IMG/VR virus record: IMGVR_UViG_3300002307_000021
Span: 32,001-96,000 of that record
Reading direction: 5' to 3' (one strand)
Length of the DNA stretch: 64,000 nucleotides
Source of the DNA: a virus
The notes under the pieces were generated by a model, which saw nothing but the letters and a program-made list of their open reading frames with translations, was not told the DNA's origin and ran no database searches. Within the stretch, counting starts at the first letter, position 1. Every line of letters starts with the position of its first letter. Both the position numbers and the translations under genes were made by a program. Positions 1,645 to 51,499 of this stretch are shown here, piece by piece.

Positions 1645-4305
1645 TTATTCAAAAGAAAATAGGTTATCAAACGTGGTTGCAATCTGGGTATTCTCACTGA
1701 TGCTCCACTTGAGAACGCCCAGTAAGTTTTCTACCTTTTGATCAACGATACCTGTTTCCATACTAGCGTCGTCAAATGGTAATTCTTTAAACCAATTAGG
1801 TAAGTGTGCTTCATCAGTTGGATAACCAACTGAATTATACCCAAGTGGATTGTCTTTGAGTTTACATACAATGGTCTTCATACCATCAACAATACTAGTT
1901 GAATAGTTATCACCATGCATACGTTTTAGATTGTTCCAGTTCATTGCGGCGCGAACGTGTCCTGGCATATTAGCTTTGCCTAGGCGTTCTTCTTCTTTGG
2001 TATACTTGGTCAAGTTGTTTACACGTTTAGGTGTGCCTTTCTCCCAAGCCGGACGTTCTGTAAATATCAATTTGAACTCACGTACTTTGTCAATGATACT
2101 CTCACGTTGTGTACCTGTAAGAACATCCATTAAGATCTCACTTAAGAAGTCCTGGATAACTTTAGGAGTATCTGAACGTTTTAAGTCTAGACCCATGGCT
2201 TTTACTTTGCCCGGTTTGTCGTGTGTGTCTAGACGCTTACCTTCCATGTCATAGATCAGCACAGCATAACGTTTCTTCTTAATAAACAGACCTTTAAGTG
2301 CTACTAGTTCACGTCCGCCTTTGATAAGTTCACCTTGTTTGCGTGGAGTATGGAATACTCGTTCACAAAATGCTGGAAAACTCTCATTAACTCTGTCAGC
2401 GATAGTGTCGTATAGTTGTACAGCGATGTCTTTGTTCCATTCCATCTTGCCCGATTCAACTTCTTCTTTGATGATAGGCCATGCACTAAAGTAACACGAG
2501 TCAGTATCACCGTAGATAATAGCTTTACCTACATGATCATACTCGCCAGTGATGCACTCATTAATATAAGCATCCATGTGACGGGCGATCGTACGACCCG
2601 TAAGAGTAGTCGACTGGCCAATTCTTTTATCAAAAAAGCGACACCCAGGGTTGAGAATAGCACCGTATAAGCTGTTGAGGTTAATCTTTTTGACAAGTTG
2701 TCGCTTATCCCAAAACGCGATATCTTCATTAGTAGTTGCTTCCTTCTTTTTAGCCTGCATTTCTTTACGTTCAGCATACCAACGTTCAAGTAATCCTGGA
2801 ATAACACCCTTGCGTTCGTTGCTAAAGATAGTACCATTGGCACTGATAATCCAACTCTTATTACTGTCAAAGATTAAACGCCAAACGTCCGCGGCACTTA
2901 AGACATCACTGGTTCCATTTTCCCAGTCGATAGTTATTTCAGTCCCTACTTCGCCTTTCATTACAGCATCGTATTCTAAACTGCCAAATAAACCTTCCCA
3001 TGCATCAGCAAACTTACCTCCGTTTTCACGCATTTTGTCACTGATGTAACGGTCTGTCATAGTCTGACGTAGTTGGCCTACGATGGTTTCTGGACCCATG
3101 TTAAGTGCGCGAATAGCACTTGGATATAGTGAGTTAATGTCAACTGCGCCAATGTAGTCATGCATACCTGCTTTAGGAGTAGCTACATACGCACCTGCGG
3201 CCTGTGTGTTTTCTGTTTCATCACGGGTACGATTTGGAACAACCATACCAAGTTGATGTGCTTCGTTGATAATTGCCTGCTCTGTAACTGCCACAGCACC
3301 CATGGTCGTTTGTAGTAGCACAGTATTATCATGCGCCAACTCGTTGGCTAGATCTAAGAAGCGTAGTTTCTTATCTAACTTAGCTACAATCATTGTATCT
3401 TGACGATTGTACACAATGAACTTTTCAAAGTCTTTATTGTATAGTTGATCTAAGGTACCTTCGTACTGTGTTTTACGTTCGTCTAACTCATATTCACCAA
3501 TAGCATCCAATGAATAACTATGACGTTCTTCATAGGTATACTTACGATATAGTTGCATGTAGTCTAGATGCACACGACCAATAAGGTCAAAGGTTAAGTT
3601 ACTAGCACCAAAGCGTTCAAATTCACGTTGTTTAGGATACTGGCCCCATAGACAGTAACGACGGGTATCGTCTTTGCTTAGAACACGATTGGTACGCATG
3701 ACCATATACGGAATATCAAAGCCTTCACTGTTCCAACCACTTAATATGTCTGCGTCATCAATAAGATCTAAGAATGTATTCAGCAGGTCTTCTTCACGTT
3801 CCATTAAGAAACAGTTATCAAACTTACTACAGATCTCCTCAGCAGTTTCCCAACTCATACTCTTGGGAGGAACAACCATGGTAACTAGTTTATCTAACCA
3901 ATCTAAGTATACACTCACAGCGGTAATTGGATTAAACGGATCGTCTGGACGACTAAAGCCTCGCACTGGGTCAAAGTCAACCTCAATGTCGAAGAACGCT
4001 GTTTGTAGTTTAGGTGCCATCTGCCCTAGATAGTTTTCTTCTAGACAGCGGAATACAGGATTGATATCACTTTCCCAAGTCTTCTTACCCGAATTAATTC
4101 TTACTTCTTTATGGAATTCTTTACCTACTTTAGTACTGAAACGTGACACAGGGGTGTCATAGATAGTGCGAAATTTACCTTTAGGATCGTCATAATAGAA
4201 AACATAGTTAGCAGGATATTCTTTATACTCTCTCTGCCCGTTTGTTCTCTCAACGATATAGATGCGATCTTTATTACGATCAAATAGTGCGTCGATGTAA
4301 CTCAT
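1645..4305 (-). CDS. family B DNA polymerase (T4 gp43-like)
   Basis: ExoI FDIEV, ExoII WNSEGFD, ExoIII YNRQD; polymerase motifs DINSLYPS, KINLNSLYG, YGDTDS, KKRY. Confidence 0.97.
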   Translation of the reverse strand: MSYIDALFDRNKDRIYIVERTNGQREYKEYPANYVFYYDDPKGKFRTIYDTPVSRFSTKVGKEFHKEVRINSGKKTWESDINPVFRCLEENYLGQMAPKLQTAFFDIEVDFDPVRGFSRPDDPFNPITAVSVYLDWLDKLVTMVVPPKSMSWETAEEICSKFDNCFLMEREEDLLNTFLDLIDDADILSGWNSEGFDIPYMVMRTNRVLSKDDTRRYCLWGQYPKQREFERFGASNLTFDLIGRVHLDYMQLYRKYTYEERHSYSLDAIGEYELDERKTQYEGTLDQLYNKDFEKFIVYNRQDTMIVAKLDKKLRFLDLANELAHDNTVLLQTTMGAVAVTEQAIINEAHQLGMVVPNRTRDETENTQAAGAYVATPKAGMHDYIGAVDINSLYPSAIRALNMGPETIVGQLRQTMTDRYISDKMRENGGKFADAWEGLFGSLEYDAVMKGEVGTEITIDWENGTSDVLSAADVWRLIFDSNKSWIISANGTIFSNERKGVIPGLLERWYAERKEMQAKKKEATTNEDIAFWDKRQLVKKINLNSLYGAILNPGCRFFDKRIGQSTTLTGRTIARHMDAYINECITGEYDHVGKAIIYGDTDSCYFSAWPIIKEEVESGKMEWNKDIAVQLYDTIADRVNESFPAFCERVFHTPRKQGELIKGGRELVALKGLFIKKKRYAVLIYDMEGKRLDTHDKPGKVKAMGLDLKRSDTPKVIQDFLSEILMDVLTGTQRESIIDKVREFKLIFTERPAWEKGTPKRVNNLTKYTKEEERLGKANMPGHVRAAMNWNNLKRMHGDNYSTSIVDGMKTIVCKLKDNPLGYNSVGYPTDEAHLPNWFKELPFDDASMETGIVDQKVENLLGVLKWSISENTQIATTFDNLFSFE

Positions 4306-6097: not shown

Positions 6098-6877
6098 TTA
6101 GCAGTTCCAACGACGACGTGCCTTACAAATAGCTTTATCTGGTGTCTTAGTGCAGTCAATATTGTGCATCTTTTTTTGACCTAGACTTCTAGCACAATAA
6201 CTTGAACGACGTTTACTATCTGCACTACCTTTCTTAAGTTTACTAGGTTTAGTAGTTACTGCTGTTTTTAATTTGCTACCAGGATGTTCACGGCGATATG
6301 CACTAACAGCTTTCTTGCTCATACCATCTGTCTTATCTCGCTTGTTGACCTTTTGCCAATCTTCTTCTACAGGCACACAGTTATTTACACGTGTGTCCCC
6401 TTTCATTTTAGTGCCTTGTTTCTTGTAGCCCTTCCAGCATTTAGCATCTAAGCGTTGTTTGCTTTCTGGTATTAATACAGGATCAGCACTTAGGTATTCT
6501 GGGAATTGTTTATCAAATTCACGCATCATAATACCAGCTTGTTCGTGTGCTTCATTTTCAATAGGACTACCTGTGTGCCAACTGTCGCCGTCTAAGCGAT
6601 GTTGTTCACCTTGTGCATAGTGTACCATTTCATGTGCTAGGGTACGTAAGATATCTACAGGGTTACGATTAGCAACAACCACAGTAATAATTTTTTCTTC
6701 GTTAACAAAACGACCAAATGTTGGAACGTTTGCATCTGGAATAGATTTAACTAGTTTGATTTTAGGAATGTGATCTAATTTTAAATTCTTAACTGCAATA
6801 GGTAAAAAGTCACGTAGTGCATCAATTAGCGTTAGTTTATTAGGACCTTCTAGGTCAAACATTTCAAATAAGTTCAT
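6098..6877 (-). CDS. putative internal head protein: HExxH metallopeptidase-like domain plus basic Cys-containing modules
   Basis: RTLAHEMVH; CWKGYKK..VNNCVP module; RRSSYCARS...ARRRWNC module; N-terminus MNLFEMF. Confidence 0.65.
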   Translation of the reverse strand: MNLFEMFDLEGPNKLTLIDALRDFLPIAVKNLKLDHIPKIKLVKSIPDANVPTFGRFVNEEKIITVVVANRNPVDILRTLAHEMVHYAQGEQHRLDGDSWHTGSPIENEAHEQAGIMMREFDKQFPEYLSADPVLIPESKQRLDAKCWKGYKKQGTKMKGDTRVNNCVPVEEDWQKVNKRDKTDGMSKKAVSAYRREHPGSKLKTAVTTKPSKLKKGSADSKRRSSYCARSLGQKKMHNIDCTKTPDKAICKARRRWNC

Positions 6878-9800
6878 TATTTCAATCCTGCTAATCTGCG
6901 TATAAGGCTAATGCTTTCGTTGGTTTGATTAATAGGGCGTATATCTAAATCACCTAATGATAATCCTAAGTCTTGTTCGTGCTCACGAGCTTTTCTTACA
7001 GCATAAGTGATATCACCTTGACTTACACGACTAACTACCTCACCGGTTGATGGGTTATAGATTTCCCATTCTTGATGGTCTGGATCTACACCTTGTTGCG
7101 TTGCTGCCATGTCTTGTGAAATTTGCTCACGCTCTTGACGCATACGCTCACGCTCATCTGCATAGGTAGTAGTTGGAGATGGTGTTGCTTCGTCCGGATT
7201 AATACCACGACGACGTAGTTCGTGTTTGATAGTAACTCTAAAATATGCGGCCTGTTGTTCATTTAATACTGTAGTTGTATTCATATTGTTTAGAACATTA
7301 ATCAAACTTATATCGCTATGGTCTGCGATGTTTTCTAACCACTCGCGATGTGCTGTAGGTAAACTAGCACGCACAGCATTTTCAGCACTACCTGCGGCCT
7401 GTGCTAAGTCAGTATTACTTGATGTTGTAGTAGTTGTATTGCCTGCTCCAGGTACGGCTGTGTAGTTTCTAGTTTCAACATTATTAACGCTACCGTAGAT
7501 GTGTAATGCTTCATCACGTGTAGTTGCACTTACTGTGCCTACTGGTCTATTGAATCCATCCAATACTATCCAACTTTGTTCTTCACCGGTTTCACCTGTG
7601 TCCTGTCTACGACGTAGTTCGTCATCAATAACTCCAATCACAGCATCTCGTTGTTGTTGTGAGCCCAGTACACTATTATAGGTACCTTGTTCAATTTGCT
7701 GTCTTTTCTCTGTAATTTCATCTGTGCGACGGTTGATTATTGTGTCAACCCAATCACGCCATGATTGTGGGATAGCATGTACAGCACCAGCATTATTATT
7801 AGTGCCTATAGCAGTAGCAATCAAATCGTCAACATCAACGCGATTGTGTAATACACTCAAAAACTTTTCTTGTGCTTTGATTTTAGCCTGGCGTGGCGTA
7901 TCCGCATCAACAATAAAATGCCCATTACCGCTGCGATGTTCGACCTTCCAGCGTGTTTCGTTGTTGTCCACTGTGCTGTTTTGTCTACGGTCTAGTTCGT
8001 TGTCATCTTGTTTACGGAACTCAATTAGTTCATTAATGTAGTCTAATAGATATTCAGTACTTACTTCATCTAAGTAGCTAAACTGCCCAGCTTTAAGTTC
8101 TCTTTCAAATCTTAATAACTCATTAACTTCTGCCTTGGGTGCTTTGTTTTCGATCCAATCTTTCCAACCACCAGTTAATGTTTCTGGTGCTGGTTTAGTT
8201 GGCGCAGGTCCCGGCGCAAGTCTTTCAAACGGCTCGGCTTTGAGTTTGCTAATACTCGCCTCACGCTTCATGCCCATCTGTTTGCCACCTTTGATGATAG
8301 CTTCTGTTGGGCTAGTAGCATGTACCATTTGCTTACCACCTGTGCCGTCTTTGTTCATTACCCAGTACTGTTGTTCTTCACCTTTCTTCTCTTTACGAGC
8401 TACCTGTGCTTGACGAACATTACTTACTAATTCTGATTTGTTGATCTGGCCTAGAGCATAGCGACTGAATAGGGCTACTGAATTGTTAGGATCAGTCCAC
8501 TCACCCTCTGGGCCAATTAGTTTATATAACTTCTTAGCGTACTCTTGTTTGTAAGCACCATCATCTGTGGCAATACGTAATGCTTGTGCGGCACGTAGAG
8601 CAGTATTAAGTAATTTAGGGATATCTTGTTCTAAGTAGTTACCACCCGGACCACGGAATTCTACATATTTGTCTTTGGTATTGATACTGGTGTATTTATT
8701 AGTAATGCCTGAGTGTACTAGTTTACTAGCGGCAGCATTTACATGCTCTTTCATTTTGGCTAACAATGCTGTGGCATTTTCTGGATTCTGTTCTATCTTT
8801 TCTTTAACTACCTTCATAGCACTCTTAGCGTAACTATTATATGTACGATCAAATTCTCGTAGTACGTGTTCGTCACCTAAGAACAGGGCTAGTTTAACAT
8901 AGTCAAGATTATCAATAGTCATGTTAGGCACACTGATGTTCATGTGTAGGCCAGTTGACTTATTAGTATAACAGCCAGCAGCACTGGCCCAGTCCTTAAC
9001 CTTTTTAATCATAGCCAAGCCATCTTTAAGTGGCATTGCTGGACTGATAAACTCTAGCCCTGCGTCACCTTGATCGGCATCAATTGAACCATCCGGCTCA
9101 ATGATAAAGTAACCTTGTTGCTGTTGATCGCTGCGGCTAGCACTGTGATAGTTATTATAACCCTTGGCTCGGAAACCTGTGTAATCTGAAAAATCTTCTG
9201 CTACTTGGTCAACGTCAGCTTCGCCACCGCTACTATAGTAAGTCCAGTGTGGCCAATCTAACCCCCACTCACGTTCTGCTTCACTCATGTAGCTAATGCC
9301 TAGACTACTCAACCAGTCTGATTGATCGTAGTCATCACGCATTTCATCTTCCATCTCTTGACGTACATCGTCGTAGGCACGTTGATACTCGCGACTGTCA
9401 GTATCTTCCATCATATCATCTAGGGTTTTTTCATTTAGTTTTAGAGCTAACTGATGTATTTCATCTTCTGACGCTTTGTCTTCTGGATTCTCGTCTGGGT
9501 TATTTTCTTGCCATTGTTCCTTGGCTAACTCAGTCATGTCGTCAAAGTCAATATCACTGTCTAAGCGATCACGGATACGATCATTTAATTCGTCAGTGTC
9601 TATGTTATCACTGATTTGTTCACTTTGCCAATCTAAGAACTGATCCCACATTTCACTGCGTAGGCGATCAGCACCACTGGCGCCTAGGTTTGACATTTCA
9701 CCTTCCTGAAAGAAACGTATAATGTCGTCGATATCGTTGGCACGTTCGTCCATGTCATAGTCGTATTCACCTTCACCGCTGTCATTATCGACGTTGGCAT

Positions 9801-9948
9801 TGGGAACGCAAAGCTCAAACTCTACTCCTATTAACATTCCCTCAGCCTCGGGGCTATTAGCAAACTTCTCTAAGGATGTGGGGCTCATCGATACTTCGTC
9901 GATAATCTCTGCTTCAATAAGTGCTTGTTTAATTTCTGTATATCGCAT
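6877..9948 (-). CDS. putative amidoligase (COOH-NH2 ligase) with repetitive C-terminal modules
   Basis: GVEFE, EPDGS, LEFISP, TNKSTGLHMNIS, KYTSIN, VEFRGPGG. Start placed at MRYTEI (9948) because the longer track start overlaps the HNH gene. Confidence 0.85.
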   Translation of the reverse strand: MRYTEIKQALIEAEIIDEVSMSPTSLEKFANSPEAEGMLIGVEFELCVPNANVDNDSGEGEYDYDMDERANDIDDIIRFFQEGEMSNLGASGADRLRSEMWDQFLDWQSEQISDNIDTDELNDRIRDRLDSDIDFDDMTELAKEQWQENNPDENPEDKASEDEIHQLALKLNEKTLDDMMEDTDSREYQRAYDDVRQEMEDEMRDDYDQSDWLSSLGISYMSEAEREWGLDWPHWTYYSSGGEADVDQVAEDFSDYTGFRAKGYNNYHSASRSDQQQQGYFIIEPDGSIDADQGDAGLEFISPAMPLKDGLAMIKKVKDWASAAGCYTNKSTGLHMNISVPNMTIDNLDYVKLALFLGDEHVLREFDRTYNSYAKSAMKVVKEKIEQNPENATALLAKMKEHVNAAASKLVHSGITNKYTSINTKDKYVEFRGPGGNYLEQDIPKLLNTALRAAQALRIATDDGAYKQEYAKKLYKLIGPEGEWTDPNNSVALFSRYALGQINKSELVSNVRQAQVARKEKKGEEQQYWVMNKDGTGGKQMVHATSPTEAIIKGGKQMGMKREASISKLKAEPFERLAPGPAPTKPAPETLTGGWKDWIENKAPKAEVNELLRFERELKAGQFSYLDEVSTEYLLDYINELIEFRKQDDNELDRRQNSTVDNNETRWKVEHRSGNGHFIVDADTPRQAKIKAQEKFLSVLHNRVDVDDLIATAIGTNNNAGAVHAIPQSWRDWVDTIINRRTDEITEKRQQIEQGTYNSVLGSQQQRDAVIGVIDDELRRRQDTGETGEEQSWIVLDGFNRPVGTVSATTRDEALHIYGSVNNVETRNYTAVPGAGNTTTTTSSNTDLAQAAGSAENAVRASLPTAHREWLENIADHSDISLINVLNNMNTTTVLNEQQAAYFRVTIKHELRRRGINPDEATPSPTTTYADERERMRQEREQISQDMAATQQGVDPDHQEWEIYNPSTGEVVSRVSQGDITYAVRKAREHEQDLGLSLGDLDIRPINQTNESISLIRRLAGLK

Positions 9949-10658: not shown

Positions 10659-10739
10659 TGCTCACTTTTGGCATCCCTCCAGGCCAGCAGCCGGCCACAC
10701 CAAAACCGCTACGGATAGCGGGCCTAAGGTAGGTGTTCT
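10659..10739 (+). ncRNA. candidate structured ncRNA made of rRNA-like segments (decoding-centre mimic); strand uncertain
   Basis: GC-rich island in AT-rich DNA; GCCAGCAGCCG, GCCGGCCACACC and CGGGCCTAAGGTAG segments; stems GGCC/GGCC, ACACC/GGTGT, CCGCTA/TAGCGG. Confidence 0.6.
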
Positions 10740-10839: not shown

Positions 10840-11184
10840 TTAGTTTAACTCTACAATAGGCATATACAAGTTTCTTGCACCTGGTTCTTCACGCATTACT
10901 GTATTTACAAATAGGGTATTAGTGTTATCACCATTGGGTGTATATACACAGCCTAGGTCAACCCATAATTCGTTATCACGTAAGCGGAATTTTTGCTTGC
11001 CCAATACAGATTCTAATTTTGGTGCCATTTCAGGTGATACAGCCATATCTAACATTCTAGTAACATAACTCCAAGGTATGCCACGCTCTTGCGCACGATC
11101 CTGTACGTGATCGCTGACTCTTAAAATTAAGTTACCAAGTTTGCGTCTTATCAACGCTTCGGTTAAAAGTTCTTCTATTCTCAT
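10840..11184 (-). CDS. putative BECR/RelE-like ribonuclease-fold internal protein
   Basis: MRIEELLTE N-terminus; SDHVQDRAQERGI helix and C-terminal VNTVMR strand, as in DUF4258-like RNases. Confidence 0.5.
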   Translation of the reverse strand: MRIEELLTEALIRRKLGNLILRVSDHVQDRAQERGIPWSYVTRMLDMAVSPEMAPKLESVLGKQKFRLRDNELWVDLGCVYTPNGDNTNTLFVNTVMREEPGARNLYMPIVELN

Positions 11185-11185
11185 A

Positions 11186-12520
11186 TTAGTGTATGGCGTA
11201 TTCTGTACGCTTACCTTCTTTATTTGTGTACAGCAGACTAACGTCCCATACACCTTCACGACGTTTAATGTAGATGTGATCTCTAATCCATCCCGGAACA
11301 CCGCCATCGCCATCTCTGCTGCGCATATTTTTTACTATACTATTGCTGACAACAGTATCAAGGTCGCTAACATCCAGGGTTGAACCATATTCGTTTTCTT
11401 CTTCAACAGCAAGTTCACGAACTTCAGATGGAGTTAGATCTACAGCATTAGTAATGTTGTGAATAAAATTAGCTACGTCATAGTTCCAATCTGTATAAGA
11501 TACATCAGCGGCATGGACAGCATCCCAGTCAATTTGACCTTCATCTTCGTGCCCTTCTGGATACACATAGCCTTCACTGCGTAGGTAATCCCACCAGTAG
11601 TCATCTTGGCTTTCCCAATCGCTGGCCATTTCATTAACGTGATCAGTTACAGCCGTGTTGATTTTGTCAATTAACGGTTTTAATACTTCGTCTGGTGTAA
11701 ACACTAGCCAATCATTGATTGCTGGTTCACGTTCACGGAAGAACGATACTAGATCACCAAAACGTGTAGTCAGTAACTCAACAATGTTATCTACACTATT
11801 ATCACCTTCATCCATAAACTGATTACTTTGGAAGTGTAGTTGATACTTTTCGCCTTCGTGTTTTGGTTTCTTAGGTAGTAAGATATACAAGTTGCCGTCT
11901 TTAGCATAGCGACTGTACATATTATTTTCACGAGCCGCTGTACACCAACGTGTACCTTGACCGTAGTAGCAAGCGGCTTCTTCATTGTAGGGAACAATAA
12001 TACGCACTGCTTCGTTATCAAATACAGTTTCGCTAGAACCTTTGTCTACAGTTTTTGCGGCACCCTGTTCTTCTTTATCGGATAATGCTTGTAGTAATCC
12101 CGGATTAGCGGCTAGGTATTCTACATCACTAAACGTTAGTCTACCAATATCACGTTGTTCTGGTGGAAGTATTTGTTTAGTTTTAAATTCATGATACATC
12201 TTAAGCGCACTATTACCACGACTTAGAATATCTTCTAATTTGACACCTTGGTTAGCATAGACTTTAGCTAGCCATTGTACATATTCTTTATTTTTAGTAG
12301 GGTCACTGTCTTCGAGTGATGACATGATACCATTGACTATCTGTCTGTACATTTCAGGTGCTATTTCAGCAACTGGTTTACCTTCAATAAACTCTTGAGA
12401 CTTAGCTACCCAAGCTAGGCCATAGCTTTTATCTTTTTGAAATGCGGCGATAAGTTTGTTGCCAAATACATTAGCAGTCTTTTCTCTGCTGTATTCTATT
12501 AAAAAGTCTCTAGCTCTCAT
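11186..12520 (-). CDS. putative internal head protein (TRWCTA, PcfJ-like domain)
   Basis: MRARDFLIE start; DPTKNKEYVQWL and AACYYGQGTRWCTA motifs; acidic C-terminus. Confidence 0.6.
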   Translation of the reverse strand: MRARDFLIEYSREKTANVFGNKLIAAFQKDKSYGLAWVAKSQEFIEGKPVAEIAPEMYRQIVNGIMSSLEDSDPTKNKEYVQWLAKVYANQGVKLEDILSRGNSALKMYHEFKTKQILPPEQRDIGRLTFSDVEYLAANPGLLQALSDKEEQGAAKTVDKGSSETVFDNEAVRIIVPYNEEAACYYGQGTRWCTAARENNMYSRYAKDGNLYILLPKKPKHEGEKYQLHFQSNQFMDEGDNSVDNIVELLTTRFGDLVSFFREREPAINDWLVFTPDEVLKPLIDKINTAVTDHVNEMASDWESQDDYWWDYLRSEGYVYPEGHEDEGQIDWDAVHAADVSYTDWNYDVANFIHNITNAVDLTPSEVRELAVEEENEYGSTLDVSDLDTVVSNSIVKNMRSRDGDGGVPGWIRDHIYIKRREGVWDVSLLYTNKEGKRTEYAIH

Positions 12521-13220
12521 CTTGTTCATCCAAACTTAATTCTTGATCAACTTTTTGTTGTCTGGCATTATATAGTCGTTCAATGAACTTTTTATTACGT
12601 ATGATTTTGTATGCTAAATTCTCTGTACTAAACTCTCCTGCGCGGTCTAGTCCAGCTTGACGCATGTCTTTGATTTTATCTGTTAGTTTATCTAAATCCT
12701 CAGCACTACCAGCTTTGATAGCACGTGTAATCTGAGTCATTAGATCTCTGGCCTTGGCATTAACTGCACGGTCATTGATGCTTGGTTCTTCATGCTCCGG
12801 AGTATCAATCCATTTATTATCTAATACGCTGAACATACCTGCTGATACATTGTGTGCATCTTTGTCCTCTACGTATAGTTCTACTTCGTGACCTTTGATC
12901 ATAATGTCGTGTTCGTCATTCCAAATCTTTTTCTTAGCCATATAAAATGGTTCAGTAATATCACTGTCTAATAGGGCATAGTCTGTAACTATGTGTAGGT
13001 CAAAGTCACTGTAGGCAGTGTAGTTATAGTTAACCAAACTACCGCGTAGGATAACATCTAATAGTTTGAAGTTAGGTACATCAAGATAATCAACAAAACG
13101 CTGTGCGATTTCTAAAAGTTTGTAGCGTACATCTATACGCAGTTCAGTGCCGTTCCATACCTCTTGATTTAACTCATCGTGATAGGCTATGTTGCCTTTG
13201 ACTAGATCTTTTGCTCTCAT
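12510..13220 (-). CDS. Pol-beta superfamily nucleotidyltransferase
   Basis: GSLVNYNY..SDFDLH and VELYV. Confidence 0.85.
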   Translation of the reverse strand: MRAKDLVKGNIAYHDELNQEVWNGTELRIDVRYKLLEIAQRFVDYLDVPNFKLLDVILRGSLVNYNYTAYSDFDLHIVTDYALLDSDITEPFYMAKKKIWNDEHDIMIKGHEVELYVEDKDAHNVSAGMFSVLDNKWIDTPEHEEPSINDRAVNAKARDLMTQITRAIKAGSAEDLDKLTDKIKDMRQAGLDRAGEFSTENLAYKIIRNKKFIERLYNARQQKVDQELSLDEQDES

Positions 13221-14236
13221 TAAAATAAACCTTTAACCATATCCAACCCTTGTTGGATTTTGATTCTATCTTGTTCTGCACGAGCCTGTGCTTCTGGTGT
13301 TGCGGCTTTATCGCGCTTTTTACCTTGCATATCAATTATTGCTTTTTCTTCGTAACGTTGTACAAACTTTTGTAGGAAGTCTTGTGCTGATGAAAATTGA
13401 GCTAGGTCACCATGCCCAAACATACCGTTGGCTTCACAGCTGGCCGCAAATCCTTTTACACCGTTTACTAATTTACTTATCTTAACATCATTTATATCAT
13501 TTCCTGGGAACTGTGATAGTAATGAGTCAACTTTAGGATTCTGTACACCTAGTTGTTTAGCTTCATAGTTAAAGATATCAGAGATAAATGTTTCTGGGTT
13601 AGTAGTTACTGTGACTAACTCAGTGCCTTTTTGTTTGCTAAATGGTACATGCTGTCCATCTACTACTTTTAACTGTACACCAGCATGCTGTATGCTTATA
13701 TCAAGTAGTTCACCTAGTACGCTGAACATATTACCATGTAATAGTCCTTTAACACCACGCTCGGGTGTAACACGGCTAGCACCCCATTGTGATAGACGTT
13801 CTGGGTGCCACATAAAATCAATTTGTACGTAGTCTGTAGGACCTACTTTAAAAATAGGATGTCCTGGCTTGCTTTCTGTAGTGTCTACATAAGGCGCATG
13901 ACCTGCACGTACAAACTCATCTGCTAGTTTATTCCAATGCGCAGTAAACTGTCCCTGTGTTAGTCCTTCTACTTCTGGAGCAATCATCTGTAGGTCAATA
14001 TCACCGTAGATTTTTTCTGGATCTTCAGCCGAGTCTGCTTCATGATGGGCACTTGAACCAGTTGGGCGACCACGTTTAATTGGACCTTGTCCTTGTGTGG
14101 CTAATTGTTTATTAAAATCAGCCACAAACTGATCAACAACACCTAGAGCTACTTTAACTATACGTGGATGCAGTACTGTGCCTTGCGTAAGAGTAGTGTC
14201 CCAACCACCCTCAAAGATAAAATCACGGGCTCGCAT
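13220..14236 (-). CDS. Pol-beta superfamily nucleotidyltransferase-like protein
   Basis: TGSS...YGDIDLQ...YVQIDFM. Confidence 0.75.
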   Translation of the reverse strand: MRARDFIFEGGWDTTLTQGTVLHPRIVKVALGVVDQFVADFNKQLATQGQGPIKRGRPTGSSAHHEADSAEDPEKIYGDIDLQMIAPEVEGLTQGQFTAHWNKLADEFVRAGHAPYVDTTESKPGHPIFKVGPTDYVQIDFMWHPERLSQWGASRVTPERGVKGLLHGNMFSVLGELLDISIQHAGVQLKVVDGQHVPFSKQKGTELVTVTTNPETFISDIFNYEAKQLGVQNPKVDSLLSQFPGNDINDVKISKLVNGVKGFAASCEANGMFGHGDLAQFSSAQDFLQKFVQRYEEKAIIDMQGKKRDKAATPEAQARAEQDRIKIQQGLDMVKGLF

Positions 14237-14967
14237 TACTTGTTAGCCCACTGTCTAAACCAAGCACCGGTACCAGGTAATGCCATACCAGCATCTTCTG
14301 GTAACTGTACATTTTCTCTACCTAGCGTTTCACGTGCATCTTTAACTAACTGTTCGTAGTCTGGATTATTCTTAATTTTATTAATAATTGTTTCCACTGA
14401 TACTATATCTTTTGGTGTTCCGTTGAGCAGTTTTTTAGCAATTTCGGCTGGGTTTTTGGTGATAATTTCGTTAGTTTCACGGTCTACGAGGCCGTTTTTA
14501 TACGACCATTTCATTCCTAATGCTTTGGCAATACTAGCCAATAGAATATGACGATGCATGCCTTTATAAGGACTGCCTTCTGGACTGCCTGTCATACTAA
14601 AGCGTTGGAACTCTGGCTCACCAAACATAAAGTCTGTTTGTACATAGCCGTTAGCTTTATCGCCAAGGATAGGTGTTTTTAAGTGTACGCTATCACCTGT
14701 TTTCTTCATGTCGGTGCTGGGTATGCCTTTAGACATTAACTGTTGGATTAGTACATCTTTGCTGATCTTACTAGCATCAACAGCTAGATCCAAATCACCA
14801 CTTGATTCTTTCTTACCAGTTGTGCCTAGCATGTTGTCTACTAGATTAAGACCAGTCAACTGTTCTAACCATTGTACAGTAGGAACTACGTTGTCACGTG
14901 TAATACGTCCTGTTGCTGGTTTGCCATCTGCAAGTTTAAAAACATTACCGCCTTCTTTTAATATCAT
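14236..14967 (-). CDS. Pol-beta superfamily nucleotidyltransferase-like protein
   Basis: LGTTGKKESSGDLDLAV...YVQTDFM. Confidence 0.8.
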   Translation of the reverse strand: MILKEGGNVFKLADGKPATGRITRDNVVPTVQWLEQLTGLNLVDNMLGTTGKKESSGDLDLAVDASKISKDVLIQQLMSKGIPSTDMKKTGDSVHLKTPILGDKANGYVQTDFMFGEPEFQRFSMTGSPEGSPYKGMHRHILLASIAKALGMKWSYKNGLVDRETNEIITKNPAEIAKKLLNGTPKDIVSVETIINKIKNNPDYEQLVKDARETLGRENVQLPEDAGMALPGTGAWFRQWANK

Positions 14968-15503
14968 TTTCCGTATGCCTTTGCTAATTCGTCAGCTACC
15001 ATTTGTAAACTATCCTCGTCGGCTTGATACTTAATACCAATACCTCCCCTTGCTCTCCATGCTACAATATTAGTACCGCGATCATCAATTAAGATGTTAG
15101 GGCTACCATCTGAATTAGTAGCATGTTGTTCTTTGCGGCCTGTGATAATGATTTCTGCAGGTTTAATACTTAAGTTCTTTTTAATCCATTCTTTCTTCCA
15201 ATGTCCGCTATTAGCATGGTCTCCACGTAGTGGACTTGAACAAATATCGTATGTAGGTGTGTATTGTAATACTAGTTTGATCAATGCATCTGCTGTAGGA
15301 AATTTAGGAAGTCTAAAGAAAAAATCTGTACCTATCATTTTGTCCAATGTAGGGTCAGCTTTGGCTGGCGGAATATCTCTATAGCTACCTGATTTAACTC
15401 CAGCTAATTTTGCGTACTCTGCAAAGAAATCACACAAAACTCCATCCATGTCTAGGTAGATTTTAGTGTTTTCAGTTGCTCCAGTTAGTTCGTTTGCTCT
15501 CAT
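14964..15503 (-). CDS. HAD-family 5'(3')-deoxyribonucleotidase-like phosphatase
   Basis: YLDMDGVL, SSP, K, LIDD HAD motifs. Confidence 0.9.
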   Translation of the reverse strand: MRANELTGATENTKIYLDMDGVLCDFFAEYAKLAGVKSGSYRDIPPAKADPTLDKMIGTDFFFRLPKFPTADALIKLVLQYTPTYDICSSPLRGDHANSGHWKKEWIKKNLSIKPAEIIITGRKEQHATNSDGSPNILIDDRGTNIVAWRARGGIGIKYQADEDSLQMVADELAKAYGK

Positions 15504-15536: not shown

Positions 15537-15565
15537 ATTATAAGCTATTTTGGATTAAAAGTCAA
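15537..15565 (-). promoter_or_regulatory. sigma70-type promoter
   Basis: TTGACT-17 nt-TATAAT. Confidence 0.8.
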
Positions 15566-15566
15566 T

Positions 15567-15593
15567 AAAAAACCGCCACTTGGGCGGTTTTTT
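15567..15593. terminator. intrinsic terminator, potentially bidirectional
   Basis: AAAAAACCGCC-ACTTG-GGCGGTTTTTT. Confidence 0.85.
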
Positions 15594-15605: not shown

Positions 15606-16313
15606 TTACTTAGGTAGGTTAAATTTGATACCTGTTGCAGCTTCAATCTTGTCTACTGTAACAGCATACTTAGGTAAGTCTGCTACAGGTAATGCTGTGT
15701 TAGGCATTAACCATGCTGTAACTTTTTTGCTGTTCTTTTCGTATACAATCTTGTATAAACGTGTAGGAATGCCTAGACCACTACCAATCTTTTGATAACC
15801 TTGATCCCAAATACCTCCATTAATGATGTAGTAGTCAGTACCGGGAGCAAGTGCCCATTGACGTTCAAATGTTTCTGCTTGTTTCCAAATACCACGGTTG
15901 TTATTAGCAACTTGTGGAACCATATTTGACAAGTTAAAACTTTCACTCATGATATCATCATTTTGTGTGTTGTTACCTGCTGGACTCATATGACCACGGT
16001 CATGTGTTTTACCAACAATAGCGTAGTCAGCTAATGTAGCTGAACATGCTGGTGTTACACTAGCATCAGGGTGGAAATTATCTTTGCGTTTTGCTGGACC
16101 TTTTTCCGCCGCAGGTGTTAGGTGCTCAAATACTGCTTCTGGTGCTTTAACATCACAACGATGAATTACAGCATAGTTTTTGTGACATAATTCTTGGTCA
16201 CCTGCTTTTGCTGTGTATGTCGGTAATGCTACTTCAAATTGTGAACAATCTTTTAAACCTGCCCACGCACTTGTTGATGCTAATAATGCTACTACTAGTA
16301 ATACTTTTTTCAT
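15606..16313 (-). CDS. exported DNA/RNA non-specific endonuclease (NucA/EndoG family)
   Basis: Signal peptide ending SAWA; DRGH, NMVPQ and NRGIW motifs. Confidence 0.92.
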   Translation of the reverse strand: MKKVLLVVALLASTSAWAGLKDCSQFEVALPTYTAKAGDQELCHKNYAVIHRCDVKAPEAVFEHLTPAAEKGPAKRKDNFHPDASVTPACSATLADYAIVGKTHDRGHMSPAGNNTQNDDIMSESFNLSNMVPQVANNNRGIWKQAETFERQWALAPGTDYYIINGGIWDQGYQKIGSGLGIPTRLYKIVYEKNSKKVTAWLMPNTALPVADLPKYAVTVDKIEAATGIKFNLPK

Positions 16314-16351
16314 TGAAAAACTCCTTTAAATGTTTAAAATACTTATCTTAT

Positions 16352-18022
16352 TTATACTTTAGTTGGTGCGATTGTGGTATTGCTTAATAATGGTTTCCAA
16401 ACACCTGCGTCTTTGATGTAGATCATTTCTGCTGGTTTCCATCCACCTTCGCTAGTTATTATTGTAGTAGCATTTTCGGTATAGACAAACGTAACTGAGC
16501 CAGGGCCACCGTTACCGCCACTTGCAGCACCACCATTTGTTCCAGTGTTGAGAGACCCACCACCTGGAACCAAACTCTGACCTGTAATACCAGAATATGC
16601 ACCGCTGTCACCACCTACTGTTGCACCACCTGCGCCACCATAAGGATATCCAGCACCACCTGCGCCACCACCACCACCGTCACCTGATTTGTTAGTACCA
16701 GGTAATCCTACAGGAGTTGAATTGTATGTAGCAGATGCTTGCCCTAATCCCACAGGGCCGTTACCTGCACCACCACCACCACCGCCACCTGCAGCTACTA
16801 ATAAAGTTGAACCGTTTAATAAAATGCTGGTTGCGGCACCGCCACCGCCACCGCCACCAGATGAGCCACTACCACCGGCATTGCCGCCAAGACCACCATT
16901 ATAAATTCCTGCTGGGTCTGTACCTCCAAGACCACCTGTTGCTCCGCCTGTTCCGTCAAGACCACCTTTACCCCCAGTACCTATATTAATGGTAAGTTTA
17001 TCTCCTGGGGTCACTGAAACCGTATACGACACTACTGCTCCCGGATACCCGGCATGTCCTGCTGCTCCGGCATCATTACCACCAGCCCCGCCACCAGCAC
17101 CTAAGGCTGTTATGGCAATGCTAGTTACTCTTGCTGGTACAGTGAATACTGTAGTGCCAGAGGTAAACACGTTAGATTTTATGCTAGCCGGTACACTACT
17201 TGTTACTGAGGTTGTTGGGGTTTTATAAAATACGTTGCTGATGGTAGTCCATGTTCCGGATTGTTTGTTCAGTATTTGTACTGTACGAGTAAATGTCATT
17301 TTTGCATAGCCAGCATAACCTGCATCACCGTAGCGTTGTCCTGCTATTACATTGCCTGAACTTGTACCGGATCCGTTGATTAGTTGACTAGGAATTTCTA
17401 AAGCATAGTTTTGACCGCCACTACCGCCTTCCCCACCTTGTCCGTCATCGCCGTATGAAGTCCCAGTCAGCCCGCCTTTGTATCCACCACCGCCACCACC
17501 ACCTACTCCACAACCGCCAGCATTTGATTGGCCAACAGTAGTACTAGTTAATCCAGAATATACTCCGCCTGGTAATCCGGCAGTTGCACCTCCACTACCA
17601 TCATCGCCATAACCACCGCCACCGCCGCCACCAGCGGCTACTGCTTTAATTGTACTATTAACGACTATAGCTGATGCGGCACCGCCGCCACCTGATCCGC
17701 CACTGTCGCCATCTTCGTCACTTGTTGATGCACCTGATCCGCCTGCAAATCTACCATCGTTAAAAGAACTACCAGCACCGCCACCAGTTGCACCAGACGC
17801 ACTAACACCCGGGCTACCTACGCCAATATGAACAACATCACCGCTACTAATAGTTGTATACGTAGAAACATAACCACCACCTCCAGCACCTGCACCAGAC
17901 CCACCACCGCCACCTGCTCCCCAAAGTTCTACGTGTACATTAGAACTAAAGCCAATTGGCATAGTAAACTGATATTCTCCTATACTAGGAAAGGTAACTT
18001 GATATATGGTTGATGTAGTCAT
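16352..18022 (-). CDS. glycine-rich virion/tail-fibre-associated protein
   Basis: Two Gly-rich domains, each opened by a WGAGGGG/LGAGGGAG motif. Confidence 0.75.
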   Translation of the reverse strand: MTTSTIYQVTFPSIGEYQFTMPIGFSSNVHVELWGAGGGGGSGAGAGGGGYVSTYTTISSGDVVHIGVGSPGVSASGATGGGAGSSFNDGRFAGGSGASTSDEDGDSGGSGGGGAASAIVVNSTIKAVAAGGGGGGGYGDDGSGGATAGLPGGVYSGLTSTTVGQSNAGGCGVGGGGGGGYKGGLTGTSYGDDGQGGEGGSGGQNYALEIPSQLINGSGTSSGNVIAGQRYGDAGYAGYAKMTFTRTVQILNKQSGTWTTISNVFYKTPTTSVTSSVPASIKSNVFTSGTTVFTVPARVTSIAITALGAGGGAGGNDAGAAGHAGYPGAVVSYTVSVTPGDKLTINIGTGGKGGLDGTGGATGGLGGTDPAGIYNGGLGGNAGGSGSSGGGGGGGAATSILLNGSTLLVAAGGGGGGGAGNGPVGLGQASATYNSTPVGLPGTNKSGDGGGGGAGGAGYPYGGAGGATVGGDSGAYSGITGQSLVPGGGSLNTGTNGGAASGGNGGPGSVTFVYTENATTIITSEGGWKPAEMIYIKDAGVWKPLLSNTTIAPTKV

Positions 18023-21437: not shown

Positions 21438-22412
21438 TTATGCTAACTTAAATGCTTTCAAATTCTTTGCAGGAGTACTTGGTTGTATATCTTGAGTCAT
21501 GCTAGTGCTGTAACGTGGATCCTTGGCCATTTTCTTATTACTAGCCACTACACCAACGCCTGCAGCATCTTCTGCTACTTTAGGTGCCCAAAACTTGTGA
21601 GCGCCAAACATTTTATCGCAGTGTTCAATTTTCATTTGATCCATCTTTGATGCAGTTGAGCTACGATGCCATTTTTTAGCATCTTTAACTTCGTAATTCC
21701 ACTTGCCACTCATTGTCTGTCTTAGGCCAGCTTTAATAGCCGCTATGCGTTGTTCTGGGCTAATATTGTAAAAATAATATCCTGGTTTTGGATCTTGCTC
21801 GATAGTAGTTTGTTCAACAGATTCAACTAGACCCATGCCATTACGTACAGCCTGAAATAGTTGTGGCGCTAGTTCCCCTGCGCCTGTTGATTTGGTAAAT
21901 GCATCCATATTGTTAGCCACAGCGGCAGCACGTGCTTGACTAGCACTAACACCTTCTACGCCTTCTGCGCCATCTTCACGTTCACCGCTACTAACAAAAT
22001 TAAGAATAAATTTATAATAACCATCCGCCCTCTGCACTCCATTGTATGATTCTAGTAGTTTTTGGAATGCTTCCATACGATCACTGCCTGCAGCAAATGT
22101 CACTGAAGTGTAGCCTTTACCGTATAACCAGTCTGCTACCTGCATGATAGTTTTGAGCTGTATGTCAAATACAACATGGCCTGCTTGTTGTGGGAATAGT
22201 GCTTTAAGGAACTTAATTTTGGTTGTGTAGTCTAGGGGATTATCTTTACGATCTTGTGTTTGACTAACAAATACAAAGTAATCGCCACCTTGAGCTGCGG
22301 ATTCTACTGTGTTAATTAATTGTGCGTGTCCAACAGTAGGAGGATTCATGCGGCCAAAACAAAAAGCCGCATGTTTCTCTTGTGTTGATTCAAATAATTC
22401 AGTTAAAAACAT
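21438..22412 (-). CDS. cytidyltransferase-like (HIGH superfamily) protein
   Basis: FGRMNPPTVGH, AGSDR, SASQAR; MFLTELFES start. Confidence 0.85.
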   Translation of the reverse strand: MFLTELFESTQEKHAAFCFGRMNPPTVGHAQLINTVESAAQGGDYFVFVSQTQDRKDNPLDYTTKIKFLKALFPQQAGHVVFDIQLKTIMQVADWLYGKGYTSVTFAAGSDRMEAFQKLLESYNGVQRADGYYKFILNFVSSGEREDGAEGVEGVSASQARAAAVANNMDAFTKSTGAGELAPQLFQAVRNGMGLVESVEQTTIEQDPKPGYYFYNISPEQRIAAIKAGLRQTMSGKWNYEVKDAKKWHRSSTASKMDQMKIEHCDKMFGAHKFWAPKVAEDAAGVGVVASNKKMAKDPRYSTSMTQDIQPSTPAKNLKAFKLA

Positions 22413-50205: not shown

Positions 50206-51499
50206 CTTCAAACCCCCTAAAACGCAAGAACCTAGGAAAACGTAGTGAGTAAGTACCGTCTTGATTTTGCGTAACAGCATCTGCACGTACCTCAACTATC
50301 TGACCCCGTAACTCATCACGGTTGGTCCAAAAAACTGTACGATCGTTATCAGTAAAGCCACTACCGCAGTTAACAACAATCCCACGGCCATCATCTTCGC
50401 CACTACATACCAAAGCCCCCAATCGACCTTCGTTGCGCCCTGTTCCTTCTTCGACATCTGTTACCTCCAAACTAACTTCAATAAATGGTTTAAGTTTGAG
50501 CCAGGCTACACTACGTTTACATTCGTAGGTCGCACGTGGATCTTTAATCATAATGCCTTCGTAACCACCGGCTACTGCATCTTCATTGATTTTCTTAAAG
50601 CGTAGTTTACCTTCATCAGAATCTAGGTCTACTAGCTCTTGCCCTACTACTGTTACATTGGGCATATGGTCTTTAAATTGGTTATACCAAGCAAACAAAC
50701 TATAGCTACGATCATCTTGGCGATGATTACCACTACCTGATTGAAATTCACGTAGGGTAATAATATCAAACAGATTAAGTACAGCATCAGTTGATTCAAC
50801 ATCACTCTTACGATGTACCTGTTTCATTAGATCTTGAAAACTTGCTGACATAATTTCACCATCGAGTACCATTGGCTCTGCAAAGAATATAGCGTGCTTG
50901 CCTAACTGCCGCTCAACCAATGGAAAGTTTGCCAATTGTTTACCGTTCCGGCTAAAAAGATTAACAGCCCCAGTTGGATAGACAATAGCAATAACACGAA
51001 CTCCATCGAGTTTAACTTCGATGAGTCTTTTTCCCGCCACTTTAGACTCGTGATTTGCACTATCGTGAGCAAGTTGGCAAGTAAACACAGGAATAGCGTA
51101 ATCCGCATATTTTTTCTCCACTACTTTGTTGATGGTTTTTTCACTTACACCACAGCGTAAGTCTTTGATAAGGATACGACGATACCAATCATTCCACTGT
51201 GCTTCTGTGGAATTCATACGTGCATAGTTTACTGCTGTTAATGCCGCATTACCGGTTAGTTGTCGTGTACTTAATTCTGTTGTTAATTTTAAGAAAGCGT
51301 CCCAGCTAAAGCCACGACCATCACCGGTCTTAGGTTCAACTTGTTTTACGCCAAATGTGATCATGCTGTCTAGGGCTAACCGACAACCTGCAAAGAATTC
51401 ACTATTGCCTGCTAGTGCCTGTACTTCGATGATTTGTTCTTTATTAGTTCTTAGATTGTGAAGTTCTAAGTCTTTGATTACCTGCCAAGGTTGATCCAT
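50189..51499 (-). CDS. ATP-dependent DNA ligase
   Basis: KLDGVR, LDGE, FD, EGIMIK, WLKLK, CGSGF, SLRFPRF. Confidence 0.96.
   Translation of the reverse strand: MDQPWQVIKDLELHNLRTNKEQIIEVQALAGNSEFFAGCRLALDSMITFGVKQVEPKTGDGRGFSWDAFLKLTTELSTRQLTGNAALTAVNYARMNSTEAQWNDWYRRILIKDLRCGVSEKTINKVVEKKYADYAIPVFTCQLAHDSANHESKVAGKRLIEVKLDGVRVIAIVYPTGAVNLFSRNGKQLANFPLVERQLGKHAIFFAEPMVLDGEIMSASFQDLMKQVHRKSDVESTDAVLNLFDIITLREFQSGSGNHRQDDRSYSLFAWYNQFKDHMPNVTVVGQELVDLDSDEGKLRFKKINEDAVAGGYEGIMIKDPRATYECKRSVAWLKLKPFIEVSLEVTDVEEGTGRNEGRLGALVCSGEDDGRGIVVNCGSGFTDNDRTVFWTNRDELRGQIVEVRADAVTQNQDGTYSLRFPRFLRFRGFEVGEKL

Follow-up and report, generated by a model that had tools for sequence, protein, structure and literature searches.

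In eukaryotes, family X DNA polymerases fill gaps during base-excision and end-joining repair. Viral members are known from African swine fever virus (ASFV) and from giant viruses, and to our knowledge they are not a recognized part of phage biology. The ASFV enzyme, Pol X (pO174L), which is paired with the ASFV DNA ligase, consists of palm and thumb only and lacks the 8-kDa and fingers domains. Bacterial LigD, of nonhomologous end joining (NHEJ), unites end cleaning, nucleotide addition, and sealing in one protein or operon. In Phaeocystis globosa virus 16T, a Pol X core is fused to an NAD+-dependent DNA ligase, and the resulting protein, PgVPolX, fills and seals base-excision-repair gaps (PMC5537341). 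Sets of kinase, phosphatase, nucleotidyltransferase, and ligase are a known phage answer to tRNA-cutting defenses (PMC7824862, PMC12776372), and RlaP, the RNA-ligase-associated Pol-beta nucleotidyltransferase, adds 1-2 nucleotides to damaged RNA (PMC12776372). The present study concerns a four-gene operon of a large phage, at positions 12510-15503 of a 64,000-nucleotide stretch (the window) that comprises bases 32001-96000 of the 158-kb IMG/VR virus record IMGVR_UViG_3300002307_000021, whose estimated completeness is 45%. Structural modeling gives family X as the best match for two of its products, P2 and P3, which are predicted to be divergent, minimal (palm plus thumb) Pol X-like paralogues. 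We think it moderately probable that the operon represents the polymerase, or “fill,” part, and probably also the end-healing part, of a phage nucleic-acid break-repair module. Gene structure, predicted folds, catalytic residues, linkage, and fusions are the observations from which we infer activities, substrate, and time of action. The four genes are:

14964-15503, minus strand: NT5C-type HAD phosphatase of the 5'(3')-deoxyribonucleotidase family, 179 aa (Pfam NT5C, phrog_2643)
14236-14967, minus strand: P2, minimal family-X-like nucleotidyltransferase, 243 aa (AlphaFold2 model, structural matches, invariant Asp triad)
13220-14236, minus strand: P3, larger family-X-like paralogue with a C-terminal basic helical extension, 338 aa (AlphaFold2 model, structural matches)
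12510-13220, minus strand: P4, generic Pol-beta-superfamily nucleotidyltransferase candidate, 236 aa (phrog_36119, 3.7e-45)

The family assignment is carried by AlphaFold2 models of P2 and P3, for which alignments of relatives served as input (pLDDT 93.6 and 87.3, respectively). In an exhaustive VIA structural comparison with 48,161 PDB representative chains, for which the quoted background is Z 7-8, the nine best chains for both proteins are all family X DNA polymerases (Pol beta palm-thumb, lambda, mu, TdT, Leishmania Pol beta, Thermus PolX, and ASFV Pol X). Against family X, P2 aligns 156-173 residues over its residues 11-192 at Z 7.8-9.8, and P3 aligns 160-193 residues over residues 14-253 at Z 8.7-10.2; with Pol beta residues 142-335 the values are Z 9.8, root-mean-square deviation 3.5, and 164 residues for P2, and Z 10.2, 3.7, and 180 residues for P3. 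Foldseek agrees, the best 50 PDB matches of P2 all being Pol lambda, beta, or mu (E ~1e-4, probability 1.0) and P3 likewise pointing to family X, and the BFVD matches are uncharacterized phage proteins first, followed by giant-virus family X polymerases. The Asp triads are located on model strands 58-64/108-116 in P2 and 80-86/136-145 in P3. We trust the assignment because the top rows belong to one family, both subdomains are covered, and the carboxylates lie on equivalent strands. The nucleotidyltransferase fold anticipated by an earlier, sequence-only reading of the window is thereby borne out, the models of P2 and P3 matching a Pol-beta-type palm.

Other members of the superfamily match less of these models. 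Terminal uridylyl transferases, poly(A) polymerases, CD-NTases, OAS, MenT1, and CCA-adding enzymes share the palm alone (85-118 residues, Z 4.8-8.4). That reading had also proposed that the nucleotidyltransferases rebuild tRNA CCA ends, an idea that the comparison does not support: P2 and P3 match family X over palm and thumb (156-193 residues), whereas CCA-adding enzymes match P2 over about 90 residues of the palm (1ou5 and 3h37, 87-91 residues, Z 4.8), and there is no Pfam PolyA_pol match. The same rows bear on a second proposal, that the enzymes NMPylate proteins or small molecules, or synthesize signal nucleotides, as a counter-defense. The palm core is indeed common to MenT toxins, CD-NTases, and OAS (Z 5-7), and single P2-domain proteins among the relatives bear ART-PolyVal or Tad3 domains. 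However, the chains of CdnB/C/D/E/G, OAS1, and cGLR align over 85-116 residues at Z 5-7.6, below every Pol X row, and MenT1 (8an4) over 94-95 residues at Z 5.7-6.0, so that the match ends at the generic palm where Pol X covers palm and thumb. The main fusion partners of P2 are, moreover, ligase-like, kinase, and phosphatase domains, and Pfam and PHROG matches reveal no HEPN family among the operon proteins, nor is there an effector or target partner. We regard such a counter-defense role as very improbable.

At the sequence level, all three nucleotidyltransferase candidates keep a GS...DxD motif and a third acidic residue, and every motif listed in the sequence-only reading is present and conserved. 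In P2 the motifs are G48..S56-G57-D58-L-D60 and V109-Q-T-D112-F-M, and D58, D60, and D112 are the only invariant columns among 46 diverse relatives (mean column identity 32%). The corresponding motifs of P3, G60-S61, Y77-G-D79-I-D81, and V137-Q-I-D140-F-M, are retained in a relative of 29% identity; P3 also has an insertion between GS and DxD and, at residues 254-338, a conserved basic C-terminal helical extension. P2 and P3 share the YVQxDFM and KG motifs and are distant paralogues, as had been supposed, with a pairwise BLAST E of 0.002 and an hhalign probability of 46-69%, the sequence similarity being confined to the YVQxDFM strand region. A prediction of the P3-P2 complex scored 0.00, which is no answer and counts neither for nor against binding.

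Both families are large and nameless. At 90% clustering, P2 has 2657 and P3 630 relatives in uncultured large phages; a profile search of 1.84 billion representatives gave 1033 P2-family clusters. The phage family with this fold comprises more than 1000 clusters at 50% identity. Neither protein has a name in Pfam, PHROGs, or NCBIfam, and NCBIfam has no match for any operon protein. Pfam DNA_pol_B_palm is matched by 1 of 48 long P2-domain relatives (1.1e-5). A tblastn search against phages found nothing for P3 and only Atu_ph07 and Phosso for P2, megablast of the locus against 50,697 phage records gave no match, and our literature searches turned up neither a minimal Pol X family in phages nor any account of DUF6267, the protein that accompanies P2 and P3 in relatives.

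The genomic company of P2 and P3 was followed through 80 viral loci encoding P3 (66-78% identity to the window P3), whose open reading frames were labeled by BLAST and home-made hidden Markov models (HMMs). The order P2-like, P3, DUF6267 is found in 50 of the 80, most others being permutations or cut by contig ends, and DUF6267 lies within 2.6 kb of P3 in 47 of the 50 loci that have enough flank. The usual P2-P3-DUF6267 locus sits after a DnaB-type helicase, and in the cultured jumbo phages Atu_ph07 (Agrobacterium) and Phosso (Sinorhizobium) the P2 homologue follows primase and helicase genes. In loci L005-L084, P3 (66-78% identity to the window protein) is far better conserved than the adjoining P2-like protein (23-83% to either reference) and DUF6267 (29-89%), and it seems, from these identities, to be the most constrained member of the trio. 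A GNAT acetyltransferase domain stands at the N terminus of P3 in four loci (L004:6001-7401, L058, L081, and L082) and of P4 in P0360; this operon has no GNAT. Fusions to relatives of both P3 and P4 suggest that an acetylation step may be tied to these two types of nucleotidyltransferase.

The same partners recur as fusions. Among the 150 best P2 representatives there are 45 P2-DUF6267, 3 DUF6267-P2, 1 DUF6267-P3-P2, 2 NT5C-P2, and 1 P2-DUF6267-NT5C proteins, and Pfam finds DUF6267 in 35, CTP_transf_like in 12, and NT5C in 3 of 48 long P2-domain members. In P0381 a single chain holds cytidylyltransferase, polynucleotide kinase, P2, and DUF6267 domains. DUF6267 has invariant K50, D52, D127, H172, K307, and E332-G333, and near-invariant K344 and R348. 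The resulting pattern, KxDG...GDL...EGxV...K..R, resembles that of covalent nucleotidyltransferases such as ligases, and we describe DUF6267 as ligase-like in this sense; by sequence it has no link to a solved ligase, a PHROG function, or an NCBIfam family. Single-sequence and profile searches of P4 and DUF6267 against solved structures likewise returned nothing meaningful.

The HAD phosphatase is tied to this set by similar observations. Its match to Pfam NT5C exceeds the cut-off by a small margin (25.2 bits against 24.8, E 1.8e-5), the match to phrog_2643 reaches 6.7e-19, and HAD motif I is intact (D18-M-D20-G-V, or DMDGV), so that the HAD nucleotidase gene first proposed from sequence stands. 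In P0384, P0385, and P0426 the NT5C and P2 domains form one protein, and several loci have NT5C a few kilobases away; these rare fusions and neighbors support, for now by genomic association, a functional link between the phosphatase and the nucleotidyltransferases. The same phage record encodes a second, divergent NT5C-like HAD protein outside the window (G000:C1:15765-16256, minus strand; phmmer E 2.8e-12 against the operon HAD protein).

P4 is of another kind. Across 24 relatives, the G60-S61...S71-D72-F-D74 region is invariant, with residues G60 and S61, D72 and D74, and E112/E114, and 21-22 of the 24 show sub-threshold matches to NTP_transf_2, MTPAP palm, or Polbeta (best 9.3e-5), the MTPAP-like palm matches being weak (best 0.0068). 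Comparison of P4 with P2 by hhalign yields a probability of 0.5%, that is, no profile similarity, which agrees with the earlier view that the third nucleotidyltransferase is distinct in type. Relatives of P4 occur in Maribacter, Synechococcus, Prevotella, and Caulobacter phages, and some are annotated as aminoglycoside nucleotidyltransferases. P4 is thus a candidate generic Pol-beta-superfamily enzyme, apparently unrelated to P2 and P3. Two more specific identities were dropped: RlaP, since there is no PF10127 match either for P4 itself or among the 15 families that its 24 relatives reach at E <= 1, and a substitute for the ligase, since P4 is without ligase motifs.

In the window the operon reads HAD-P2-P3-P4, and P4 occupies the place of DUF6267. 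Close relatives of the window P2 and P4 keep a frame HAD-P2-(variable gene)-P4-447aa, in which unrelated genes replace P3 (L091 and L093), and in the complete 354-kb relative G001 a single P2 stands with P3 and DUF6267 near the helicase, P4 lying 137 kb away next to the family B polymerase. From these frames and from the arrangement in G001, P2-P3 is a deep, conserved pair by the measure of gene order, and the P4 link is lineage-specific. The conserved linkage that had been expected of the operon therefore exists in part: it extends across the 80 loci for P2-P3 with DUF6267, and through rare fusions to NT5C, but not to P4, which is linked in this lineage and L079 only. Such variability would fit an explanation without any common pathway, in which a hyperplastic region holds independent accessory enzymes behind one promoter, with the HAD enzyme managing the deoxynucleoside monophosphate (dNMP) pool after host DNA breakdown, P2 and P3 being of translesion or terminal-transferase type, and P4 modifying a small molecule or protein. 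The region from the family B polymerase to a 659-aa gene varies greatly among relatives, with the insertions inside HAD-P2...P4 in L091 and L093; Maribacter, Synechococcus, and Prevotella phages carry lone relatives of P4; and the HAD gene has a nuclease gene as its immediate upstream neighbor. However, P2-P3 adjacency and the fusions among P2, P3, DUF6267, and NT5C recur far beyond chance, and the operon genes are translationally coupled. We consider this explanation unlikely.

The partners that recur (a phosphatase and a kinase for ends, a nucleotide adder of Pol X type, and a ligase-like enzyme) read as a parts list for healing, filling, and sealing. In the break-repair module that we favor, P2 and P3 would extend the 3'-OH of a gap or of a broken end by one or a few nucleotides, and the NT5C-type enzyme would remove a blocking 3'-phosphate, like the HAD domain of T4 Pnkp, or would dephosphorylate dNMPs. 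In nearly all relatives the adjoining or fused ligase-like DUF6267 may then seal the break. P4 would be a separate nucleotidyltransferase, joined to the operon in this lineage only. Because DUF6267 is absent from the locus and from the available 158 kb, sealing in this phage would be left to its canonical DNA ligase or to a gene in that half of the genome that the record does not cover. Two genes of DNA metabolism in the window matter here:

1645-4305: family B DNA polymerase, T4-type, ~8 kb from the operon
~50489-51043, minus strand: canonical ATP-dependent DNA ligase (Pfam DNA_ligase_A_M, 67 bits; open frame 439 aa)

The ligase is the sole one recognized in the 158-kb record, and members of the NAD+-dependent DNA ligase and Rnl2-type RNA ligase families were found neither in that record nor in three relatives.

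Comparison with the described systems shows how far the likeness goes. Like P2 and P3, ASFV Pol X is viral and reduced to palm and thumb; it aligns with P2 over 156 of its 176 residues (Z 8.6) and with P3 over 169 (Z 9.5), and its pairing with a ligase is paralleled by the ligase-type enzyme in relatives of this phage. The identity, however, amounts to 14-15%, and sequence profiles gave no link between them. The predicted enzymes P2 and P3 further differ from it in their extra C-terminal helical regions, in being tandem paralogues, in having as partner DUF6267 rather than a recognized DNA ligase, and in belonging to a bacterial virus. PgVPolX resembles the fusions of P2 with DUF6267, a domain carried by 52 of the 150 best P2 relatives, in placing polymerase and ligase in one polypeptide, but it has a full Pol beta-like core, deoxyribose phosphate (dRP) lyase activity, and an NAD+ ligase domain, whereas the phage proteins lack the 8-kDa and fingers domains, their ligase-like domain is of another family, and this operon has no ligase-like gene at all. 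In LigD the polymerase is of archaeo-eukaryotic-primase type and the phosphoesterase is unrelated to HAD; no Ku turned up here, though Ku was not searched for. T4 Pnkp/Rnl1, and RlaP with RNA ligases, supply a healing kinase and HAD phosphatase, a nucleotide-restoring nucleotidyltransferase, and a sealing ligase, and similar partners are fused to P2 in relatives. Unlike RlaP, P2 and P3 have a Pol X thumb and no PF10127, and the HAD protein is NT5C-type and not kinase-fused, unlike T4 Pnkp.

Within the break-repair module, DNA is somewhat more likely than RNA to be the substrate, in view of the palm and thumb of Pol X type, the membership of the HAD protein in a deoxyribonucleotidase family, the company of replication genes, and the precedents of ASFV Pol X and PgVPolX. 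The competing account is that P2 and P3 replace nucleotides that tRNA or other RNA has lost on cleavage, that the HAD enzyme, with a polynucleotide kinase in relatives, heals 3'-phosphate and 5'-OH ends, and that DUF6267 is an RNA ligase, the whole countering host anticodon nucleases in the manner of T4 Pnkp/Rnl1 and RlaP. Some family X enzymes (Pol mu and TdT) use ribonucleoside triphosphates readily, which would suit such a role. In relatives the P2 domain is fused to polynucleotide kinase and to NT5C/HAD; the record's canonical DNA ligase and lack of an Rnl2-type RNA ligase leave DUF6267 as a candidate RNA ligase; jumbo phages combine RNA ligases, polynucleotide kinases, HAD phosphatases, and Pol-beta nucleotidyltransferases (PMC7824862); and RlaP offers a precedent for short additions to damaged RNA (PMC12776372). 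Yet the best structural matches are DNA polymerases whose thumb reads duplex DNA, Pfam gives no RlaP (PF10127) or CCA-enzyme match for P2, P3, or P4, NT5C is a deoxyribonucleotidase family, the P2/P3 locus travels with replication genes, and the window holds no tRNA genes: Rfam at gathering thresholds and ARAGORN, run over its entire length, returned no RNA element and no tRNA gene. On balance, RNA repair appears possible at a distinctly lower probability than the general module. Of the earlier proposal of RNA end healing and retailing, then, the general part, healing and rebuilding of ends, gains from the fusion of P2 to ligase-like, polynucleotide kinase, and NT5C domains, and the rebuilding of tRNA CCA does not.

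Several points weigh against the break-repair module as we have drawn it. The family X assignment comes from predicted structures whose Z values (9-10) exceed the quoted background by a moderate margin, at 10-18% identity; Pfam finds no family for P2 or P3 at E <= 0.1, and neither their sequences nor their profiles reached any Pol X among solved structures. The 8-kDa (dRP lyase) and fingers domains are absent, the alignments beginning at Pol beta ~142 with only ~10-20 residues before the palm. NT5C enzymes are known as mononucleotide phosphatases, not as polynucleotide-end phosphatases, and kinase/phosphatase fusions are equally typical of RNA repair. A role in DNA repair could be redundant in a phage already equipped with a replicative polymerase and a canonical DNA ligase. 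DUF6267 was found in the 158-kb record neither by the Pfam model nor by the home-made HMM with filters off, although the record is ~45% complete and its absence from the phage is not shown by this. P4, finally, is joined to P2 and P3 only in this lineage and L079.

The architecture of the operon indicates how the genes may be expressed. The four minus-strand open reading frames overlap by stop and start codons, with ATGA at the HAD/P2 junction and TAATG at P2/P3 and P3/P4, so that the coordinates, strand, and overlaps originally described hold, and the genes are, to judge from these junctions, translationally coupled. The flanking signals and genes are:

15606-16313, minus strand: Endonuclease_NS nuclease, secreted-type (Pfam), directly upstream of the HAD gene
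15567-15593, minus strand: intrinsic terminator of the upstream Endonuclease_NS gene (11-bp stem with 5 GC pairs, 5-nt loop, T run)
15537-15565, minus strand: sigma-70-like promoter, TTGACT-17-TATAAT (11/12 consensus matches), 34 nt before the HAD start codon
11186-12529, minus strand: 447-aa protein overlapping the P4 end, matching only the unknown-function PHROGs 28193 and 17056
10840-11184, minus strand: 114-aa last gene of the unit, also called on ENA scaffolds of the same phage
10706-10721, minus strand: first terminator-like hairpin downstream of the unit (6-bp stem with 4 GC pairs, T-rich tail), within the 10659-10739 spacer element

Transcription of the operon looks early or middle rather than late, as judged from consensus matches alone: the promoter is sigma-70-like, no exact late-type TATAAATA box lies at it, and the nearest exact one serves the Endonuclease_NS gene. 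Exact TATAAATA boxes number 3 in the window against 8.7 expected by chance, one of them preceding that gene, which is probably a late-type unit of its own (15606-16356, minus strand) with the strong terminator at its 3' end. The N terminus of the nuclease (MKKVLLVVALLASTSAWAG) resembles a signal peptide. Because the next same-strand terminator-like hairpin is reached only at 10721-10706, the unit probably also includes the 447-aa and 114-aa genes, which agrees with the suggestion that downstream genes belong to it; the labels then attached, “RNase-like” for the 114-aa gene and “rRNA-like” for the spacer, find no support in Pfam or Rfam, and the 114-aa gene has neither a Pfam nor an NCBIfam match. 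The true start of the 447-aa gene is probably the second ATG, at 12520, which yields an MRARDF leader common to several neighbors. The protein has a conserved central region containing GTRWCTA, and its gene stays linked to P4 in relatives L087-L091. Its equation with the 429-aa gene that precedes P2 in relatives was rejected, as the two have no similarity.

The leader just mentioned recurs on unrelated neighboring proteins. Between 6877 and 21411 of the window, genes starting at 9948, 12520/12529, 13220, 14236, 15503, and 21411 encode N termini of the forms MRARDFIFE, MRARDFLIE, MRAKDLV, MRANEL, MRYTEI..LIE, and MKPSEFIKE. The pattern marks 6 of ~12 genes within 6.8-21.4 kb; the whole 158-kb record has it on 8 of 176 crude genes, these 6 included, and its frequency at internal methionines is 1.2%. 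Genes inserted at the equivalent place in relatives L091 and L093 start with MRAKEF/MRAKQF and end with ..GLLK/..SGLK, and the P2 and P3 domains always start directly after hydrophobic-x-Glu | Gly-Gly, even within fusions. A search for a T4 gp21-type prohead protease (PF03420) gave no match in the 158-kb record or the complete relative G001, and was uninformative, the control being silent too. The leader may be a signal for capsid targeting or for a protease, although the operon promoter has the look of an early one. Speculatively, and at low probability, P2 and P3 could be a dedicated minimal Pol X-type pair with split roles (e.g., template-directed versus end-tailing, or DNA versus RNA strands), which with the HAD enzyme, and DUF6267 in relatives, would form a self-contained break-repair machine delivered with, or acting on, the incoming genome at the start of infection, the M-R-x-x-D/E-F...hxE|GG leaders serving as a sorting or processing signal.

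The wider surroundings are those of a large phage genome. The same phage is represented by a 334,676-bp ENA freshwater scaffold with identical gene order, and its relatives have genomes of up to 354 kb. Homing endonucleases and a glycine-rich fiber-like protein also surround the operon. Two further genes of the window recall the fusion partners and neighbors seen in relatives:

21438-22412, minus strand: cytidylyltransferase-like (HIGH-type) protein (phrog_3041 and phrog_395 cytidyltransferase; C-terminal half of phrog_455)
6877-9948, minus strand: large Amidoligase_2-type protein (Pfam marks on relatives)

The N-terminal half of phrog_455 is DUF6267, and its C-terminal half matches the 21438-22412 protein. 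In this lineage (L091 and L093) the Amidoligase_2-type protein appears again on the downstream side of P4, a few genes away, and 2 of 48 long relatives combine Amidoligase_2 with the P2 domain in one chain.

Virus-encoded repair based on Pol X is already known, and a phage version with these partners would add to it. These studies assign a predicted family X fold to a large, unnamed phage family. Three features are new here: a second paralogue, P3; partnership with NT5C and P4; and a locus that has lost its ligase-like gene. If the fill-and-seal model is correct, very small polymerases (~220 residues) of possible practical use would be at work in these viruses, and large phages would carry their own pathway of short-patch repair, or of RNA repair, which would bear on their survival of environmental damage and of host nucleases.

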